This document shows positions 1 to 5,553 of a stretch of DNA of 64,000 bases, piece after piece; positions within the stretch are counted from its first letter, which is position 1, and the number at the start of each line of letters is the position of its first letter. A model generated the notes under the pieces. The model made no database searches. It had not been told where the DNA came from and saw only the letters and a list, made by a program, of their open reading frames with translations. Location: positions 28,728 to 92,727 of the forward strand of contig CAWDHY010000001.1 in NCBI GenBank assembly GCA_963802255.1, given 5' to 3'. The position numbers and the translations under genes are program-made. Source of the DNA: Candidatus Magasanikiibacteriota bacterium. GTDB taxonomy: Bacteria; Patescibacteriota; Patescibacteriia; Magasanikbacterales; GWA2-37-8.

Positions 1-421
1 TCGCCACGCTCACATTAAGGCTTGTTTTTTGGCCTTTCATCGGTATAACCACGCTTGTGTCACAATATTTAAGAAGATTGTTTGTTACCCCCGTTTTTTC
101 ATTACCAACAACAAGTGCAAGAGGTTTTTTTGGCTTCCATTTAAATAAATCAAGGCTTTTTTTCGTCTGTTCCAAAGCCACTATATTATACCCTTTTTCA
201 CGCAATTGGGTAAGCAAACGCCAGGTCTGTTTCTGATATTCCCAGGGCATCCATTTTTCCGCACCCAAGGACACCTTGTCCAATTGAGGATGGGGGGGCC
301 GGGCGGTATATCCGCATAAATATATTTTTTCTACACCCGCGCCATCCGCGGTCCGAAACATAGCGCCCACATTATGCGCGCTTCTAATATCCGGTAAAAT
401 CAAGACAAATTTTTCTTTCAT
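1..421 (-). CDS. SpoU/TrmH-family RNA 2'-O-methyltransferase (C-terminal part lies beyond the window start)
   Basis: Minus-strand ATG at 421..419, then MKEKFVLILPDIRSAHNVGAMFRTADGAGVEKIYLCGYT...LALVVGNEKTGV. This carries the SpoU methylase motifs. The ORF runs off the window. The ATG overlaps the TGA stop of the upstream recombinase (ATGA). Confidence 0.7.
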   Translation of the reverse strand, partial: MKEKFVLILPDIRSAHNVGAMFRTADGAGVEKIYLCGYTARPPHPQLDKVSLGAEKWMPWEYQKQTWRLLTQLREKGYNIVALEQTKKSLDLFKWKPKKPLALVVGNEKTGVTNNLLKYCDTSVVIPMKGQKTSLNVSVA

Positions 422-1239
422 AAATCAAGCGGACTAACAATATTTTTCAAATTATTATTTGCCACATGGGTATAGATCTGAGTGGTCTGCAATTTAGCGT
501 GGCCCAATAATTCTTGAATATATCTAATATCCGTCCCATTTTCAAGCAAATGTGTGGCAAACGAGTGGCGCAATGTATGCGGAGTAACATTTTTAGCAAT
601 ATCAGCTTTTTTTGCAGCAAAAACCACAATTTTTTGTATTGTCGCCTCTGTTAATCTATCGCCACGCCCATTAGTGAACAAAAAATCATTTGGTTGCTTC
701 AAACTTTTTTGTTTTATCAAAATCTCCTTAAGCGACTCCGGCAAAAGAGTCATTCTATCTTTCTTACCTTTGCCTTGGAATATCCGCAGTAATCCTCGAT
801 CAAAATCTATATCCTTCATCCTAACATGTGTTAATTCACTCACCCGCAGTCCACAACCATATAACATAGATATAATACAATTATGCTTCAGATTCACCGG
901 GGCAGCAAGTATTCGCACCACTTCTTCCTTAGATAAAACTACCGGGATATGCTTTTCCTTTCGCGGATGCATTAAATTGATAAAAAATTGACGGTGCCAA
1001 ATCGTTTTATAATAAAATAACAGGGCATTATAGGCTACAGAGACCGTGCTGGTTGATCGTGAACCTGCTAAATAATCCAGGTAATCCTTAATATCATTGG
1101 CCGTCACCTCGCGCGGGTCTTTCAGACAAAATCGCAGAAACTCATTATTATAACGGATATATGAATCGGCAGTTTTTTGGCTATAATTACGAATTCTTAA
1201 CTCCCGAGATAAATTTTCAAATGTGTTGCCCTCCCCCAT
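418..1239 (-). CDS. Tyrosine site-specific recombinase, XerC/XerD-like (phage integrase family)
   Basis: 273 aa. N-terminal SAM-like core-binding region (ANDIKDYLDYL). Catalytic residues R (CGLRVSEL), K (GKGKKDR), HTLRH, LLGH and IYTHV Y, spaced as in Xer proteins. Too short to carry the IntI-specific insertion. Confidence 0.85.
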   Translation of the reverse strand: MGEGNTFENLSRELRIRNYSQKTADSYIRYNNEFLRFCLKDPREVTANDIKDYLDYLAGSRSTSTVSVAYNALLFYYKTIWHRQFFINLMHPRKEKHIPVVLSKEEVVRILAAPVNLKHNCIISMLYGCGLRVSELTHVRMKDIDFDRGLLRIFQGKGKKDRMTLLPESLKEILIKQKSLKQPNDFLFTNGRGDRLTEATIQKIVVFAAKKADIAKNVTPHTLRHSFATHLLENGTDIRYIQELLGHAKLQTTQIYTHVANNNLKNIVSPLDL

Positions 1240-1350
1240 ATTATTTGCTAAAATTAATGCGCTATACCCCCATGGGCTATAACCTCAATTTAGCAAAAAT
1301 TTTATCATATTTTAGCCATTTTAGCTACTAGTTATGATAAAGGTAGTTAT

Positions 1351-1731
1351 ATGACATTTTATTTAATTTTTAACCAAAAAACTATGAAAACAACACCAAG
1401 TCATTTCATGATTTCTGTAAAGGACATGGAAAAATCTTTAAACTTTTATCGTGATAAATTAGGATTAAAAGTTTTATACAAAACTGATGAATGGTCAGAA
1501 CTTTCTTTTGACAACAATTTAGAGCTTGCACTTAAAAAAGATGAGAAAGGTGCTAATTTAAATTGTGCTGGTATCGGTTTCCAAGTAGATGACTGCGAAG
1601 AAGCAACAAAATATTATGAATCAAAAGGAGTTGAATTTACTACAAGATGTCAAAAGAAAGAAGATATTATCTTAAGTCAGTTTAAAGATTCTGATGGAAA
1701 TGTAATTTGGCTATCTCAAAAAATTAAATAA
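1351..1731 (+). CDS. VOC family protein (glyoxalase/bleomycin-resistance/dioxygenase fold)
   Basis: MKTTPSHFMISVKDMEKSLNFYRDKLGLKV... is a typical VOC betaalphabetabetabeta N-terminus. The likely start is the internal ATG at 1384. Confidence 0.65.
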   Translation: MTFYLIFNQKTMKTTPSHFMISVKDMEKSLNFYRDKLGLKVLYKTDEWSELSFDNNLELALKKDEKGANLNCAGIGFQVDDCEEATKYYESKGVEFTTRCQKKEDIILSQFKDSDGNVIWLSQKIK

Positions 1732-1734
1732 AAC

Positions 1735-1806
1735 ATCACATAACACGCGATATCTGCAAGGGCTAAAGCCACATTTCTATGAAACGTCAGATATCGCGAA
1801 ACGTTA
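1735..1806. repeat. 72-nt imperfect palindrome (attC-like stem-loop) directly after the VOC gene stop
   Basis: CACATAAC-A-CGCGATATCTG ...31 nt... CAGATATCGCG-AAAC-GTTATGTG. The outer 8-mers are exact reverse complements. The inner 11-mers are exact. The bulges are asymmetric (1 nt versus 4 nt). Confidence 0.6.
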
Positions 1807-1813
1807 TGTGAAA

Positions 1814-1870
1814 TATACTTTTTCTTTTCGGGCTATCGTCCGCGCTTCACCAAAATAAATAAAATTTGAT
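1814..1870. repeat. Left terminal inverted repeat flanking ORF 1928..2800
   Basis: tatactttttctttt-cgggctatcgtccg-cgcttcaccaaaataaataaaatttgat. Its 15-nt and 28-nt arms are perfect reverse complements of 2907..2921 and 2866..2893. Confidence 0.8.
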
Positions 1871-1927
1871 TTTTTCTTTTATAAAAGGGAAAATAAGGAA
1901 AATAATTTATTAGTTAACTATAAAACT

Positions 1928-2800
1928 ATGTCAATCGAAAGACCAACACCACAGGATGTCGTGAGTCCCGAATCTCGCGAAAGTGAGGAGTCAAAATACG
2001 CTCTTGATTCTAATCAAGAATTTTTGGGCTTCCAAAACGTGGAGGTAACAAAAACAGACGATACAAAGCCATGGAAACCAGCTCTCGAAGTAAAAGTAAC
2101 AAAAACCGATGGTTCAGTTGCTGAAAATCTTGACGCTAACACGCCATTTTTCACATTTCGTGATTCAGAAGGAAACGAAATGACGGTCACTGCGGCCGCA
2201 GCTGGACACATTGATCAGTTGCACATCAAAGGTGAAGACGCCGGCAGTAAGTTTGATTATTCATCACTTGAAGCATTGTTTAAGGATGTTGCCCAAAAAT
2301 TACCACAGGAAGTTGCCAGTGCGCCGGGCGTGTCTGACTTTGCTGTAGACATGGGACGGCACATGGGAAAGGAAGGAATCGCAAGCATGGCAGAATTAAA
2401 AACAGAAGGTATTTTAAGCGAAGCAGACTTGAGTACTGCTGAATCTGTTCGTGCGGAAGTACAGGAGCTTAACAAGTCCGGTGACGAAGCTGCAAAAAAA
2501 GCATTTGCAGAAAAATTCAAAGCAGATAATCCTGACTGCAAAGTACAGTTTCAGCTTGTCCGCGGAACCGTGCTCGTTCCAACCGTAGATACGCCAAAAC
2601 GAGACACTACTAAATTATTCATGGTATTTGGCCCTGGTGCAGATGTAAAGAAAACTGCATATACAATGGCACCAGGTAGACATATGCCACGACACCCAAA
2701 TCCAGGCCAACATAAAAATCAAGAAGGTATACTTAATGAGGAAACCTTTAAAGAATCAGCTGACGCATGGTTTGACACGGTAATGTTGACCGGAAAATAA
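1928..2800 (+). CDS. Hypothetical acidic protein (no recognisable domain), TIR-flanked cargo ORF
   Basis: 290-aa ORF. GC looks higher than its neighbours by eye. Flanked by inverted repeats and followed by a perfect 14-bp stem terminator. Confidence 0.55.
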   Translation: MSIERPTPQDVVSPESRESEESKYALDSNQEFLGFQNVEVTKTDDTKPWKPALEVKVTKTDGSVAENLDANTPFFTFRDSEGNEMTVTAAAAGHIDQLHIKGEDAGSKFDYSSLEALFKDVAQKLPQEVASAPGVSDFAVDMGRHMGKEGIASMAELKTEGILSEADLSTAESVRAEVQELNKSGDEAAKKAFAEKFKADNPDCKVQFQLVRGTVLVPTVDTPKRDTTKLFMVFGPGADVKKTAYTMAPGRHMPRHPNPGQHKNQEGILNEETFKESADAWFDTVMLTGK

Positions 2801-2807
2801 AAAGGAA

Positions 2808-2856
2808 TTGACGGGACGCAATTCACCCCTTTTGTTTCCCTCTTGCGTCCCGTCAA
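2808..2856 (+). terminator. Hairpin terminator
   Basis: TTGACGGGACGCAA-21 nt loop-TTGCGTCCCGTCAA, a perfect 14-bp stem. Confidence 0.6.
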
Positions 2857-2865
2857 TATGGATAA

Positions 2866-2921
2866 ATCAAATTTTATTTATTTTGGTGAAGCGACCCTAA
2901 CGGGTTAAAAGAAAAAGTATA
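2866..2921. repeat. Right terminal inverted repeat (reverse complement of 1814..1870)
   Basis: atcaaattttatttattttggtgaagcg-accctaacgggtt-aaaagaaaaagtata. Further imperfect similarity extends to about 2990, including the 18-bp palindrome GGGCTTTTATAAAAGCCC at 2949..2966. Confidence 0.8.
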
Positions 2922-3054
2922 CATCATATAACAGCGTGCATGCGGTTCGGGCTTTTATAAAAGCCCTCTCCCATATTTGCTACACAAACATCAGGTGCAA
3001 TATTACTCGGCAGGCATTAAACTTAATATATAATTCATCAAATATTTTCTTAAT

Positions 3055-3600
3055 ATGGATCCACTAAAGATAATTCGAAAGTATTATCAAGTTGATTCAA
3101 AGTCTTATCAATTTTTAGTAGAACATGGCAAAGCAGTTACTAAGAAAGCTATCAAAATTGCAGAAAAAAATCCTCATCTTCATCCTGACGTGAAATTCAT
3201 AGAAGAAGCATCCATGTTACATGATATTGGAATGTTCTTAACTAATAATCCTGGAATTGGATGTTTTGGTAAAAAACCATACATCTGTCATGGATATTTA
3301 GGTAAAGAACTTTTAGAAAAAGAGAGCTTACCAAAACACGCATTAGTTTGCGAAAGACATGTTGGGGTGGGAATTTCAATCAAAGACATTGAGGAACTAA
3401 AATTACCAATACCTAAAAGAGATATGATTCCAATTTCGATAGAAGAACAAATTATTTGCTTTGCTGATAAGTTTTTTTCAAAATATGAAGGCGGTTTATC
3501 TAAAGAAAATAGCCTTGATAAGATTAGAACTGGATTATTAAAATTTGGTAATGACAAAATAAAAATATTTGATGAATGGATGATAAAATTTAAATGTTAA
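3055..3600 (+). CDS. HD-domain phosphohydrolase
   Basis: H...HD motif in SMLHDIGMF, with downstream conserved His and Asp. 181 aa. Confidence 0.75.
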   Translation: MDPLKIIRKYYQVDSKSYQFLVEHGKAVTKKAIKIAEKNPHLHPDVKFIEEASMLHDIGMFLTNNPGIGCFGKKPYICHGYLGKELLEKESLPKHALVCERHVGVGISIKDIEELKLPIPKRDMIPISIEEQIICFADKFFSKYEGGLSKENSLDKIRTGLLKFGNDKIKIFDEWMIKFKC

Positions 3601-3743
3601 TGCCTACCTGCGTAATACAACACCTAACACGGCATACACGGCTACGGTTTGCTCCGCAAACCTTCGCCCATATTGCACGGGTGTAGCCTGTCGGCTATTA
3701 TACACCCACGCAACATCGTATACGCCGAAACGTTATACGAAAT

Positions 3744-4901
3744 ATGATTATGAAAGCAAAATATCCTAATTTTATAATTTTAACATTCGCTATTTTAGGA
3801 ATGATTTTTTTGAGTGGCTGTGGGTTGCAAGATGTCAAGCAGGAGTCGGTACCGGAAGAAAATTTTCCAAAAATCGCAAGCTGGCTTTCGAAAAAGGATG
3901 AAATAATCGCCGGCAAACATCCTTATGACTTGATTATGACGGCCTGGTTTACTCCCGAAGAAGCGGAAAAAATTAAATTAGCAAATCCCAGCGCAAAAAT
4001 ATTAGCAGGACTATCCGCCAATTGGGTTTGGGATAATCGCGACTGGATGACTTTTTTGATAACAGCGGCAAATTATGGAAAAAAAGAGCCGATAGAAATG
4101 ACCGAGGAAATGTATTTACATAAGCTTAATGGTGAAAGATGCGCTTTCGGTTGGGCGTCTCCGGAGTGGGGGCACGAAGAAATTTATGCCATGGACCCGA
4201 GAAATGATAGGTGGATTGAGCTGATAACTTCTTTTTATAAAAACGTTTTGGACCAGGCGACACACGATGGTATCATTGTGGACATGGTGACGGAAAAACA
4301 ATGGTGGTGTCCCGAAGCGATCAGCAATGAAGAATGGCTCAACGCTACGAAAAACATTTTTTCAAAAATAGAAAAAATTAATACCAAGGACAAATTGGTT
4401 ATTATGAATGCCGGTAAGGACATCCAGGATATCGATGAATTTGGCGAATATTTTGACGGGTATCTGATGGAGAATTTCATGGGCAACCAGATGAAAACGA
4501 AGTTCGAAGATGGTTTGGCGGCGGCCGACAGCAAATACATTGTTATTTATGGAGTTGATACTGATGATACCGGCCAGAAAGATTTAAAAAAAATGCGCCT
4601 TGGCTTAACATTGAGCTTGCTAAATGATAATACTTATTTTACCTATGATTTTGGACCAAGAGACCACGGACAAGCATGGTGGTTTGATGAGTATAATGCT
4701 GAACTTGGGAGCGCTCTTGGAAAATATTATAAGAAGGACAACGCATACTGGAGGGAATTTGAAAAAGGAATTGTTGTGAGCTCTCCTTACAATGATATTG
4801 TTGTTTCATTTGATAAAGAATATGTTGATGCGACAACAAAAGTTAAAGCTAAAATATTTAATATTGGAAAAGAAGACGGGAGGATATTTTTAAAAAATTA
4901 A
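3744..4901 (+). CDS. Lipoprotein, putative TIM-barrel glycoside-hydrolase-like protein
   Basis: Lipobox LSGC at residues 23-26. A GH114-like assignment is only a weak, by-eye family resemblance. Confidence 0.5.
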   Translation: MIMKAKYPNFIILTFAILGMIFLSGCGLQDVKQESVPEENFPKIASWLSKKDEIIAGKHPYDLIMTAWFTPEEAEKIKLANPSAKILAGLSANWVWDNRDWMTFLITAANYGKKEPIEMTEEMYLHKLNGERCAFGWASPEWGHEEIYAMDPRNDRWIELITSFYKNVLDQATHDGIIVDMVTEKQWWCPEAISNEEWLNATKNIFSKIEKINTKDKLVIMNAGKDIQDIDEFGEYFDGYLMENFMGNQMKTKFEDGLAAADSKYIVIYGVDTDDTGQKDLKKMRLGLTLSLLNDNTYFTYDFGPRDHGQAWWFDEYNAELGSALGKYYKKDNAYWREFEKGIVVSSPYNDIVVSFDKEYVDATTKVKAKIFNIGKEDGRIFLKN

Positions 4902-4938: not shown

Positions 4939-5553
4939 ATGATAAAATTTCCCAAAGCTTCGCCTACAGTGCGCGCGGTTGCAGCTGTCATATTAGTCGC
5001 GGCTGCCGGTACAGTTTATCTGGCAAGAACCAAGCCGTTGATGTTTCAGTCTGTAACAGAAAAAATTGAAAGTATCATTACGCCCAAACCGCCGATAGGT
5101 AATCTGACACCGGCACGTGATCTGCGAGGTACTTGGAAGTCATCATTATCCGGCAAAGGCCTACAGTTATACGGCAGACACACCACTTACGGCTCAATTA
5201 CTGACATGTATGAAGACGGCGATATTGAACTGATTATTAATAACGTTCAAAATAATATTGCAGTCGGCACCATGCGCTATATCAATCTTTGCGGCTGGGG
5301 AGAAACCACTGTCACCATTCCTGGCGCAGAAGGAGTCATTAATGTGCCCAAAACTTGCGTGGCCGATACCGGTCCACAAGAAATCAGTATTCAAGTAAGC
5401 TCAAGCGCTCTGGATTTTGGAACAATTTCTGTTGACGGCATCACGGCCACAATGCAAGGCAATTTTACAACCGATATTATAAGTGGCACAATGACGGTAA
5501 CCATGCCGGGTGGAGTATTAAAAGGCACTTTTAATTTGTCGCGGCAAAGATAA
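4939..5553 (+). CDS. Hypothetical signal-anchored secreted protein
   Basis: N-terminal hydrophobic segment AVAAVILVAAAGTVYLA. Gly/Thr-rich beta-type C-terminus. Confidence 0.5.
   Translation: MIKFPKASPTVRAVAAVILVAAAGTVYLARTKPLMFQSVTEKIESIITPKPPIGNLTPARDLRGTWKSSLSGKGLQLYGRHTTYGSITDMYEDGDIELIINNVQNNIAVGTMRYINLCGWGETTVTIPGAEGVINVPKTCVADTGPQEISIQVSSSALDFGTISVDGITATMQGNFTTDIISGTMTVTMPGGVLKGTFNLSRQR

Follow-up and report, generated by a model that had tools for sequence, protein, structure and literature searches.

A putative integron-like gene-cassette platform beside a Xer-type tyrosine recombinase in Candidatus Magasanikbacteria

The locus

The stretch of DNA described here, the window, is 64,000 nt of a 628-kb contig of Candidatus Magasanikbacteria, which belong to the Candidate Phyla Radiation (CPR). 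Near its start the gene of a 273-residue tyrosine recombinase diverges from three small genes, each of which lies in a unit headed by a 12-nt core repeat and followed by a palindrome resembling the attC sites of integrons. We put the probability at about 0.7 that the locus is a small chromosomal gene-cassette platform, integron-like in its organisation and run by this recombinase of Xer type. Its features are listed below (ORF, open reading frame).

2-421, minus strand: SpoU-family methyltransferase gene, partial, leaving the window (Pfam SpoU_methylase, E 5.6e-36)
418-1239, minus strand: tyrosine recombinase, 273 residues, XerA-like (Pfam Phage_int_SAM_4 and Phage_integrase)
1330-1357, plus strand: attI-like double-stranded site of 28 bp, two arms round an 8-bp centre
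1346-1802, plus strand: cassette 1, VOC/glyoxalase gene (ORF 1351-1731, probable start 1384)
1733-1814, plus strand: attC-like site 1, intact (R″-A-L″-loop-L′-AAAC-R′)
1803-2989, plus strand: cassette 2, hypothetical gene for 290 residues (1928-2800), no family
2921-2989, plus strand: attC-like site 2, truncated (aligned to an intact site of locus L098)
2990-3731, plus strand: cassette 3, HD-domain gene (3055-3600)
3617-3743, plus strand: attC-like site 3 (9/11 L-box positions complementary)
3744-4901, plus strand: GHL15 lipoprotein gene, beginning directly after the terminal core (3732)

The recombinase on the minus strand and the three accessory genes on the plus strand had been reported in a first-pass annotation of this DNA, and all are present. 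The ATG of the SpoU gene overlaps the stop codon of the recombinase gene (ATGA). A geometric scan of the window, described below, found no attC-like site after the GHL15 gene. Exact-protein look-ups returned no record for the VOC and HD proteins.

The core repeat and the attC-like sites

The core, GTTATRYGAHRT, occurs five times in the 64 kb, always within 1346-3743; 0.22 copies are expected, and none of 100 shuffles reached five. The copies alternate in orientation (1346+, 1744-, 1803+, 2932-, 3732+). Those in plus orientation, at 1346, 1803, 2990 (damaged) and 3732, are direct repeats and mark the unit boundaries. The cores in minus orientation (1733-1744, 2921-2932 and 3617-3628) form the 3′ ends of the units, and each opens a palindrome that closes in the next plus core. 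The first-pass annotation mentioned neither these minus cores nor the long inverted repeats that flank each gene. The repeats pair the leader of a cassette with its trailer, over 26 nt in cassette 1 (1346-1371 with 1719-1744), over ~70 nt in cassette 2 (1803-1872 with 2864-2932, the inner 30 nt being perfect) and over ~35 nt in cassette 3, where the inner pair is GGCAGGCATTAA / TTAATGCCTACC.

Site 1 begins with the minus core R″ (ACATCACATAAC, 1733-1744), followed by a single A (1745), the box L″ (CGCGATATCTG, 1746-1756) and a 31-nt loop (1757-1787). The return strand holds the box L′ (CAGATATCGCG, 1788-1798), AAAC (1799-1802) and the plus core R′ (GTTATGTGAAAT, 1803-1814), and the two spacers are therefore unequal, 1 nt (A) against 4 nt (AAAC). 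The outer boxes are CACATAAC (1737-1744) and GTTATGTG (1803-1810). This palindrome had earlier been placed at 1735-1806; the element, its boxes and its bulges of 1 and 4 nt stand, and those coordinates are 2-4 nt off. Folded as single-stranded DNA, 1719-1828 reaches -17.8 kcal/mol for the top strand (z -4.6) and -22.5 kcal/mol for the bottom strand (z -6.7), and 0/200 shuffles folded as well. The loop sequence GCAAGGGCTAAAGCCACATT is common to L012 and L016, two of the comparison loci, which carry L numbers throughout and are mostly metagenomic contigs.

Site 2 runs from R″ (ACATCATATAAC, 2921-2932) through A, L″ (GCGTGCATGC), GGTTC, a hairpin and CTCCCATATTTG to AAACATC. It aligns up to this point with the intact L098 site at 3396-3494; the closing L′-AAAC-GTT is absent and the fold is not significant (z -0.98). 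A remnant of the start of cassette 3, ATCAGGTGCAAT, follows at 2990-3001. Site 3 comprises R″ (ACAACACCTAAC, 3617-3628), A, L″ (CGGCATACACG, 3630-3640), a loop, L′ (CGTATACGCCG, 3717-3727), AAAC and R′ (GTTATACGAAAT, 3732-3743), with a fold z of -2.9. Its R′ is probably the original right half of attI. The diverged 'ctaacacgg' copy of the first-pass annotation is located at 3624-3641 and turns out to be the R″-A-L″ part of this third element. The reverse complement of its R″, GTTAGGTGTTGT, agrees with the cassette's own start, AGGTGC, at 5/6 positions. A longer motif, CGAAACGTTATGTGAAATAT at 1797-1816 and CGAAACGTTATACGAAATAT at 3726-3745, had been described as recurring immediately 5′ of the next gene; this is so for the second copy (ATG at 3744), and the first copy lies 125 nt upstream of its gene.

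The attI-like site and its link to one recombinase clade

The attI-like site consists of a left arm, AGTTATGATA (1330-1339), an 8-bp centre, AAGGTAGT (1340-1347), and a right arm, TATATGACAT (1348-1357). The cassette junction falls within it, at 1345|1346 (A|GTT), and the core here precedes the recombinase start by 107 nt. GTTATGATAAAGGTAGTT, immediately ahead of the recombinase promoter, is the same in the window, L001 and L005 and carries one substitution in L012 (GTCATGATAAAGGTAGTT). The left part of attI is kept up to GTT, and the window, L001, L005 and L012 diverge from core position 4 on. The 10-8-10 geometry, inverted 10-bp arms round an 8-bp centre, is found in 7/10 loci.

Related loci were collected by scanning genomes with the recombinase protein, which gave 9 loci, several of them cut inside or just upstream of the gene. 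A metagenome scan with the recombinase alignment was also made; among the matches listed most are distant (32-47% identity, including 319-residue IntI-like proteins), and these serve as negative controls only. The core is tied to one clade of recombinases. In seven of 63 loci tested the 12-mer lies 64-119 nt upstream of the recombinase start, beside recombinases 41-83% identical to that of the window; it lies farther upstream in L007 (285 nt) and in L041 (264 nt; recombinase ~40% identical), and the remaining 54/63 have no upstream core. These 54 carry more distant recombinases, 319-residue IntI-like ones among them, except for L012 (a coordinate artefact) and L020. On three control strands taken together there were 2 matches. 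A core at or near the attI position occurs in L001, L005, L007, L011, L016, L017, L019 and L027 (recombinases 41-83% identical), and attC-like sites also lie upstream in L001, L007, L016, L017, L019 and L027. The array architecture is also found upstream of recombinases only 41-47% identical, in L016, L017, L019 and L027. Recombinase, attI-like site and one-orientation array occur together in the window, and elsewhere most fully in L001, L012 and L016.

These observations bear on the possibility that the elements are repeats of the repetitive extragenic palindromic (REP) or miniature inverted-repeat transposable element (MITE) type, or terminator or promoter modules, that occupy an accessory region without functional tie to the recombinase. 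Their intergenic position fits such an account, and so do some long loops that hold extended -10-like boxes (TGATATAAT) and hairpins, which would point to a role in expression. We nevertheless regard it as the least probable of the explanations considered. The remaining 60 kb of the window contain none of the elements, and the question of genome-wide REP-like repeats raised in the first-pass annotation is answered, within the 64 kb, by the confinement of all five cores to the array. The core keeps a similar distance from the recombinase in the window and seven loci, down to 41% identity, and is missing in more than 50 loci with more distant recombinases. Rfam has no match in the region (whole window at gathering thresholds; 1200-4000 at E<=1). 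Promoter and terminator scans gave counts no better than shuffles.

The recombinase

The recombinase has the size and two-domain layout of Xer proteins, and its catalytic residues R132, K157, H221, R224, H247 and Y256 are invariant across 33 relatives. It passes the NCBIfam XerA model NF040815 (244.8 against a cutoff of 220) and fails the integron-integrase model TIGR02249 (244.7 against 265), to which it aligns in two broken stretches; the NF011946 score is 172.5 against a cutoff of 435. The closest solved structures by sequence are about equal, IntI4 (VchIntIA; E 7.7e-50) and XerA (E 2e-49). An AlphaFold2 model of the protein (predicted local distance difference test, pLDDT, 82) has as its top Foldseek matches IntI4 2a3v (E 1e-17) and XerA 5hxy (E 2e-16). 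Integron integrases carry an additional domain of ~35-45 residues around patch III, which is needed for attC recombination. Residues 177-194 of the recombinase stand opposite residues 180-240 of IntI4, so that ~43 residues are absent, and where the insertion would be the model has just a short beta-hairpin region. We class the protein from its sequence as Xer-type; since the IntI-specific insertion is absent, it is not a canonical IntI, in agreement with the first-pass annotation.

The recombinase is 60-85% identical across Magasanikbacteria, and its pairing with SpoU is kept in L001, L005 and L012. It is the only tyrosine recombinase gene of this kind in the 64 kb. A hairpin in the 5′ leader of the gene is conserved (window 1261-1285, GCTATACCCCCATGGGCTATAAC; L001 6960-6985, CTATACCCCTTGGGGGTATAG; L005 3365-3390), as is a -10-like box, TATGATAAAAT, upstream of it (window 1296-1306); the two may form a regulatory element of the recombinase gene.

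These properties would also suit the cell's single XerA-like dimer resolvase, with the adjoining site being its dif, as for XerS/difSL. The cassettes would then hitchhike in the manner of integrative mobile elements exploiting Xer (IMEX), integrating at dif as the folded single strand of the CTX phage or the Acinetobacter pdif modules do, and the platform would be a by-product. The XerA score, the conservation across Magasanikbacteria, the coupling to SpoU, the downstream synteny in the closest relatives and the presence of one such gene in the 64 kb all speak for this, and the 28 bp of the attI-like site have the classic two-arm form. The right arm of that site (TTATGTGAAAT in site 1) resembles the XerD arm of E. 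coli dif (TTATGTTAAAT). XerCD, moreover, recombines a folded single-stranded phage site (CTX) without any IntI-type insertion. GC skew within the 64-kb window is uninformative on the position of the terminus. We nonetheless consider a housekeeping role of this kind unlikely, while giving it real weight. A dif whose right arm changes with each first cassette would be unusual. To our knowledge, IMEX and pdif modules form no long same-orientation arrays of single genes with structured palindromes of their own. A weaker objection comes from L012, whose recombinase gene is internally deleted, which is hard to square with its being the only, essential Xer, barring a further copy of the gene or a fault in the assembly. 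The mechanism overlaps with that of the integron-like platform, and the difference is mainly whether the enzyme is dedicated to cassettes.

Cassette mobility and the point of exchange

The two sides of the recombinase gene behave differently. The downstream side (SpoU and a gene for 241/242 residues) is syntenic in relatives with recombinases 81-93% identical, and the upstream side differs in every relative examined. In L001-L006 (recombinases 81-83% identical) the downstream genes are in place and the upstream region is wholly different. L001 has a PTPS-GTP cyclohydrolase-methyltransferase, an AAA protein, a cupin, a radical SAM protein and Fic upstream, and L005 an EcoRI-type methylase and GmrSD. 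The three genes of the window are thus not syntenic in relatives, and their shuffling, which the first-pass annotation had proposed to look for, is seen.

Two loci are especially informative. L012, a 770-kb Magasanikbacteria contig, has genes for GNAT and for proteins of 145, 137 and 258 residues, with further genes over at least 7 kb, separated by homologous sites. The GNAT gene takes the position of cassette 1 and is followed by a palindrome homologous to site 1 with the same asymmetry of 1 nt and 4 nt. The L boxes of this palindrome, CGGGATATCCG/CGGATATCCCG, differ from those of the window by two compensatory changes. At L012 7959-8434 and 8553-8774, the recombinase gene is without residues 59-189, its product being otherwise 83-93% identical, and a 73-residue ORF is inserted between recombinase and SpoU. 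L098, a metagenome contig of 13 kb, holds at least 12 cassettes on one strand, and each intergenic space contains a site of the family. Its cassettes include GNAT, HD, SnoaL, the 290-residue protein (93% identical to that of the window), a 96-residue protein, GNAT again, a 382-residue protein, aldehyde dehydrogenase, a 205-residue protein, VanW and a 202-residue protein; one GNAT cassette is present twice.

The 290-residue cassette allows a direct comparison. Window 1783-2992 and L098 2258-3468 are 91.6% identical over 1211 nt, and the homology stops where the next cassette starts. On neither side are the neighbours the same, being VOC and HD in the window and SnoaL and the 96-residue gene in L098. 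The start of this cassette (GTTATATGMAAT ATACTTTTTCTTTTCGGG) also follows three further, differing upstream attC halves, in L102, L103 and L107. Logan contigs of other samples with identical proteins break at ~1342 (the attI junction) and at ~1798 (site 1), and many contigs with homologues of the 290-residue gene start 150-220 nt upstream of it. From these comparisons of assembled DNA we conclude that the cassettes are mobile between arrays and between positions.

The point of exchange was sought in 28 hand-curated cassettes from 8 arrays. The reverse complement of each inverse core was compared with the cassette's own 5′ core and with the adjacent core. Agreement at the six variable positions averages 5.46/6 with the own start and 3.54/6 with the adjacent core; the own start agrees better in 23 cassettes and the adjacent core in 1, with 4 ties (binomial p 1.5e-6). 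As the inverse core matches the cassette's own start, the exchange is placed at C|GTT or no more than one or two bases from it. Site-specific recombination produces such a rule, which counts further against generic repeats. The attC-like layout R″-L″...L′-R′ with an asymmetric spacer, proposed in the first-pass annotation, is borne out both by this crossover position and by the compensatory L-box changes.

A tyrosine recombinase next to genes bracketed by core-led inverted repeats (26 nt for VOC, ~70 nt for the 290-residue gene) might instead suggest inversion, with the recombinase flipping genes relative to outside promoters as in phase variation or a shufflon. This is highly improbable, if slightly less so than generic repeats. 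Nearly all genes of the arrays examined have constant orientation, and the 290-residue cassette points the same way in all five of its contexts. The minus core has a spacer of 1 nt and the plus core one of 4 nt, the minus core always pairs with the following plus core, and the L boxes show covariation. Between genomes, homology ends at direct-repeat and not at inverted boundaries. The constant orientation and the breaks at direct-repeat cores led us to reject both an invertible segment and a MITE or other element with terminal inverted repeats; no target-site duplications were seen by eye. A reading of the units as pdif modules was likewise rejected. The minus copies have a gap of 4 bp, not 7 bp, to the neighbouring arm, are without the distal arm consensus and form the 5′ half of a palindrome.

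Site geometry and a possible mechanism

Sites of this architecture were searched for by geometry (AAC-N-10 nt ... complementary 10 nt-NNNN-GTT, with >=9/10 paired), using shuffled controls, at a false-positive rate of ~0.6 per 64 kb. The scan gave 13 matches in 224 kb on the array strand upstream of recombinases and 6 matches in 1055 kb elsewhere, near the false-positive rate. In 17 scan elements the L helix is paired in 99.4% of cells, and 9/10 pairs change on both sides. As this set had been picked by complementarity, a second one was selected by the R″/R′ flanks only (n = 10); its L boxes are complementary at 9.2/10 positions, against 2.5/10 for shifted controls. Pairing is kept in both selections, and the L-box sequence therefore varies while its pairing stays. 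A small central (A/G)TAT core of the box is conserved, and loop lengths span 30 to ~700 nt.

The motif ACnTCnnATA occurs twice in the sites, in fixed register and on the same strand, at R″ (consensus ACATCnnATAAC) and in the L′ region. The second copy falls within the 12 nt ending 7 nt before GTT, and the complement of R′ reads ATTTCnnATAAC. Folding of the sense strand would place the R″ and L′ arms in inverted orientation, 8 nt apart on the R″ strand, which is the geometry of attI. The opposite strand of the folded site has 11 nt, three bases of AAAC being extra, and ACATC opposite GAAAT leaves two fixed mismatches. In the unfolded duplex the L′-R′ half has an 11-bp centre and the R″-L″ half is without the distal consensus of one arm. 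This poor fit of the unfolded halves to the arm geometry favours a folded substrate, parallel to attC.

A plausible mechanism follows the integron scheme. The recombinase gene diverges from a double-stranded attI-like site, and the three same-orientation cassettes lie promoter-distal to it. The sense strand would fold as single-stranded DNA or as a cruciform, the R″/R′ and L″/L′ duplexes setting the two arms inverted, and the unpaired AAAC bases and two fixed mismatches would mark the strand to be used. The recombinase, as the presumed catalyst, would exchange strands at the C|GTT boundary. Cassettes would be excised as circles with one complete site and re-inserted at attI, and the single-strand exchange would be resolved by replication.

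Several observations weigh against an integron-like platform. The recombinase is without the insertion by which IntI reads folded attC sites. It may be primarily a chromosome-dimer resolvase or housekeeping Xer, because it is highly conserved, is translationally coupled to a housekeeping methylase, has synteny on one side and passes the XerA model. The L′-AAAC-R′ half resembles a double-stranded 12-7-12 site, making a purely double-stranded mechanism possible. Site 2 of the window is truncated, and site 1 alone agrees better with the adjacent core than with the start of its own cassette. The L012 array, of at least 9 cassettes, persists beside an internally deleted recombinase gene. The elements of the crossover test were hand-curated from about 10 loci, everything rests on comparing assemblies, many of them metagenomic, and no circular cassette junction, empty attI or strain pair differing by exactly one cassette was observed.

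The integron-like platform remains our preferred interpretation. The first-pass annotation had offered a non-integron cassette system or a Xer merely sitting beside a repeat-rich patch, and the data favour the former. A broader proposal is that the whole CPR clade of these Xer-like recombinases is a dedicated cassette integrase, recombining hairpin-folded attC-like sites without the IntI insertion. We advance it tentatively, as a possibility falling a little short of an even chance. If it is true, a clade so far filed as presumed dimer resolvases would be a case of the integron principle invented independently, or else a living link from Xer/dif to IntI/attC, and organisms with tiny genomes would have a previously unrecognised route of gene acquisition.

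Relation to known systems

Judged from the nucleotide sequence, the locus appears to possess what functionally defines an integron platform, namely a recombinase gene, an attI next to it, mobile cassettes that share one orientation and each bear a structured palindromic site, and crossover at GTT. We call it integron-like, and not an integron in the strict sense, because the IntI insertion is absent and the sites differ from attC. As in integrons, a tyrosine recombinase gene diverges from an adjacent attI, and the best solved-structure match of the recombinase is VchIntIA. The cassettes are small, mostly single-gene and accessory (VOC/glyoxalase, GNAT, HD) and lie in one orientation, as in sedentary chromosomal integrons in particular. 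The sites share with attC the imperfect palindrome R″-L″...L′-R′ with ...AAC and GTT..., an asymmetric central spacer and a variable loop; crossover is at GTT, so that the first bases of a cassette are complementary to its own inverse core. Further points in common are duplicated and empty cassettes, assemblies broken at the sites, and site families shared between lineages.

The locus differs from integrons in several respects. The recombinase has 273 residues, is without the ~43-residue IntI insertion and fails TIGR02249. The core is GTTRYRYGAAAT here and GTTRRRY in integrons. The R″-L″ spacer is 1 nt here, whereas that of attC is ~5 nt. No extrahelical bases lie inside the L box, and what makes the sites asymmetric is a 1x4 internal loop together with two fixed mismatches. 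Lengths of 100-190 nt are frequent among the sites, whose loops carry conserved motifs (GGTTC, CNCCCAAATT). The strand predicted to react is the sense strand of the cassette, in contrast to the bottom strand used by integrons. The complementarity of leader and trailer extends 26-70 nt past the core, also in the first cassette of L001, far exceeding that of integron cassettes. Their pairing in a circular or single-stranded cassette would give a longer hairpin stem, and in the mRNA it could join the 5′ and 3′ ends.

Single-recombinase Xer/dif systems (XerA; XerS/difSL; XerH/difH) are alike in that the XerA model is passed and the size and domain layout are those of Xer. A 28-bp two-arm site, moreover, lies next to the recombinase gene, as difSL does to its own. 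Such systems resolve dimers at one fixed site, whereas here the site heads a variable array, and one half of the site depends on which cassette comes first. The CTX phage and IMEX provide a precedent for a Xer enzyme that, without the IntI insertion, joins a hairpin-folded single strand (attP) to a double-stranded dif1, tandem arrays building up. They differ from the present units in being phages or genomic islands many kilobases long and few per genome, whereas the units here are 0.1-2 kb, usually of one gene, each with its own site of the family. The pdif modules of Acinetobacter are small accessory-gene units between alternating Xer-type sites, as here, and are thought to be moved by Xer (PMC7399989). 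They have complete 28-bp XerC-6-XerD (11-6-11) sites at both module ends, whereas here the minus copies are one arm of a long palindrome and the boundaries are direct-repeat plus cores.

Among Xer-related recombinases, Smyshlyaev et al. 2021 (PMC8138268) distinguish a 'Cand' subgroup, drawn from candidate phyla, which they presume to stand in for Xer; cassettes are unmentioned. The archaeal integrons of Ghaly et al. 2022 (PMC9668308) have IntIs that keep the additional domain. In the IntegronFinder 2.0 survey (PMC9024848) 'Patescibacteria' is absent, and the sole 'Candidat-' term is Candidatus Nitrospira inopinata. The full-text-searchable literature, which leaves subscription-only papers outside, yielded no description of cassette arrays or integron-like systems in CPR/Patescibacteria.

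The definition of an integron turns on an integrase whose special insertion reads folded attC sites. Surveys based on this definition would class the present recombinases as Xer and the arrays at best as orphan attC clusters. Should an ordinary Xer-type enzyme drive a cassette system of parallel structure, the integron principle would be older or more easily evolved, and the step from Xer/dif to IntI/attC could be tested with a natural intermediate. It would also show that CPR bacteria, whose genomes are well below 1 Mb, maintain a hotspot dedicated to the exchange of accessory genes such as those for acetyltransferases, VOC/glyoxalase proteins, hydrolases and restriction-modification. A platform of this kind would account for the frequent assembly breaks at the locus, and it would offer a compact pair of recombinase and site for tool development.

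Further observations

Scans of viral contigs gave 0 matches with the type-I loop and, among the stretches listed, only single, chance-level matches with GAAACGTTANNNGAAAT. L008, L009 and L010 are labelled 'uncultured Gammaproteobacteria'; their recombinases are 68-69% identical to that of the window, and the contigs are cut inside the gene or ~120 nt upstream of it. Mislabelling of the bins, together with assembly breaks at the array, is the probable explanation.

Some cassettes are 'empty', with a plus core followed by its own inverse core within ~44-150 nt and no ORF between them. One lies just upstream of the recombinase in L016, and others occur in the L012 array (1827-1908) and in L103 (3880-4030). 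Conversely, whole ORFs lie inside attC-like loops whose L″ and L′ are perfectly complementary 650-690 nt apart. This is seen in L001 (3582-4270, with a 171-residue ORF at 3703-4218), and the same arrangement in the L016 array (607-1300); it recalls elements that target attC loops.

Long loops also carry extended -10-like boxes facing the next cassette (TGATATAAT; TATGATAAAAT), in L001 (~4990-5010), L016 (2090-2259) and L098 (10440-10460, 9300-9315), and the cassettes may carry their own promoters within the preceding site. The loop motifs GGTTC and (T)CNCCCA(A/T)ATT are conserved in long attC-like loops.

A homologue of the 290-residue protein, 81% identical, is encoded among housekeeping genes in L096 (7900-8861). 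It has a partial leader (AACAAAATAAATAAAATTTGATTTTTTT) and neither cores nor palindrome, and is either a gene from which cassettes could form or a cassette that has decayed. Directly behind the 290-residue gene of the window comes a perfect hairpin of 14 bp (TTGACGGGACGCAA...TTGCGTCCCGTCAA, 2808-2856) without a T-run, which is kept in L098 and L103. A leader element, AGGGGAATAAGGTGTTTTC-hairpin-GAAAACGA, recurs in L001 (6790-6850), L005 (3170-3200), L011, L017 and, in part, the window (1881-1905), and the leader start GTTATACGCAATTCAAAAAA stands ahead of three unrelated genes in L005, L011 and L098.

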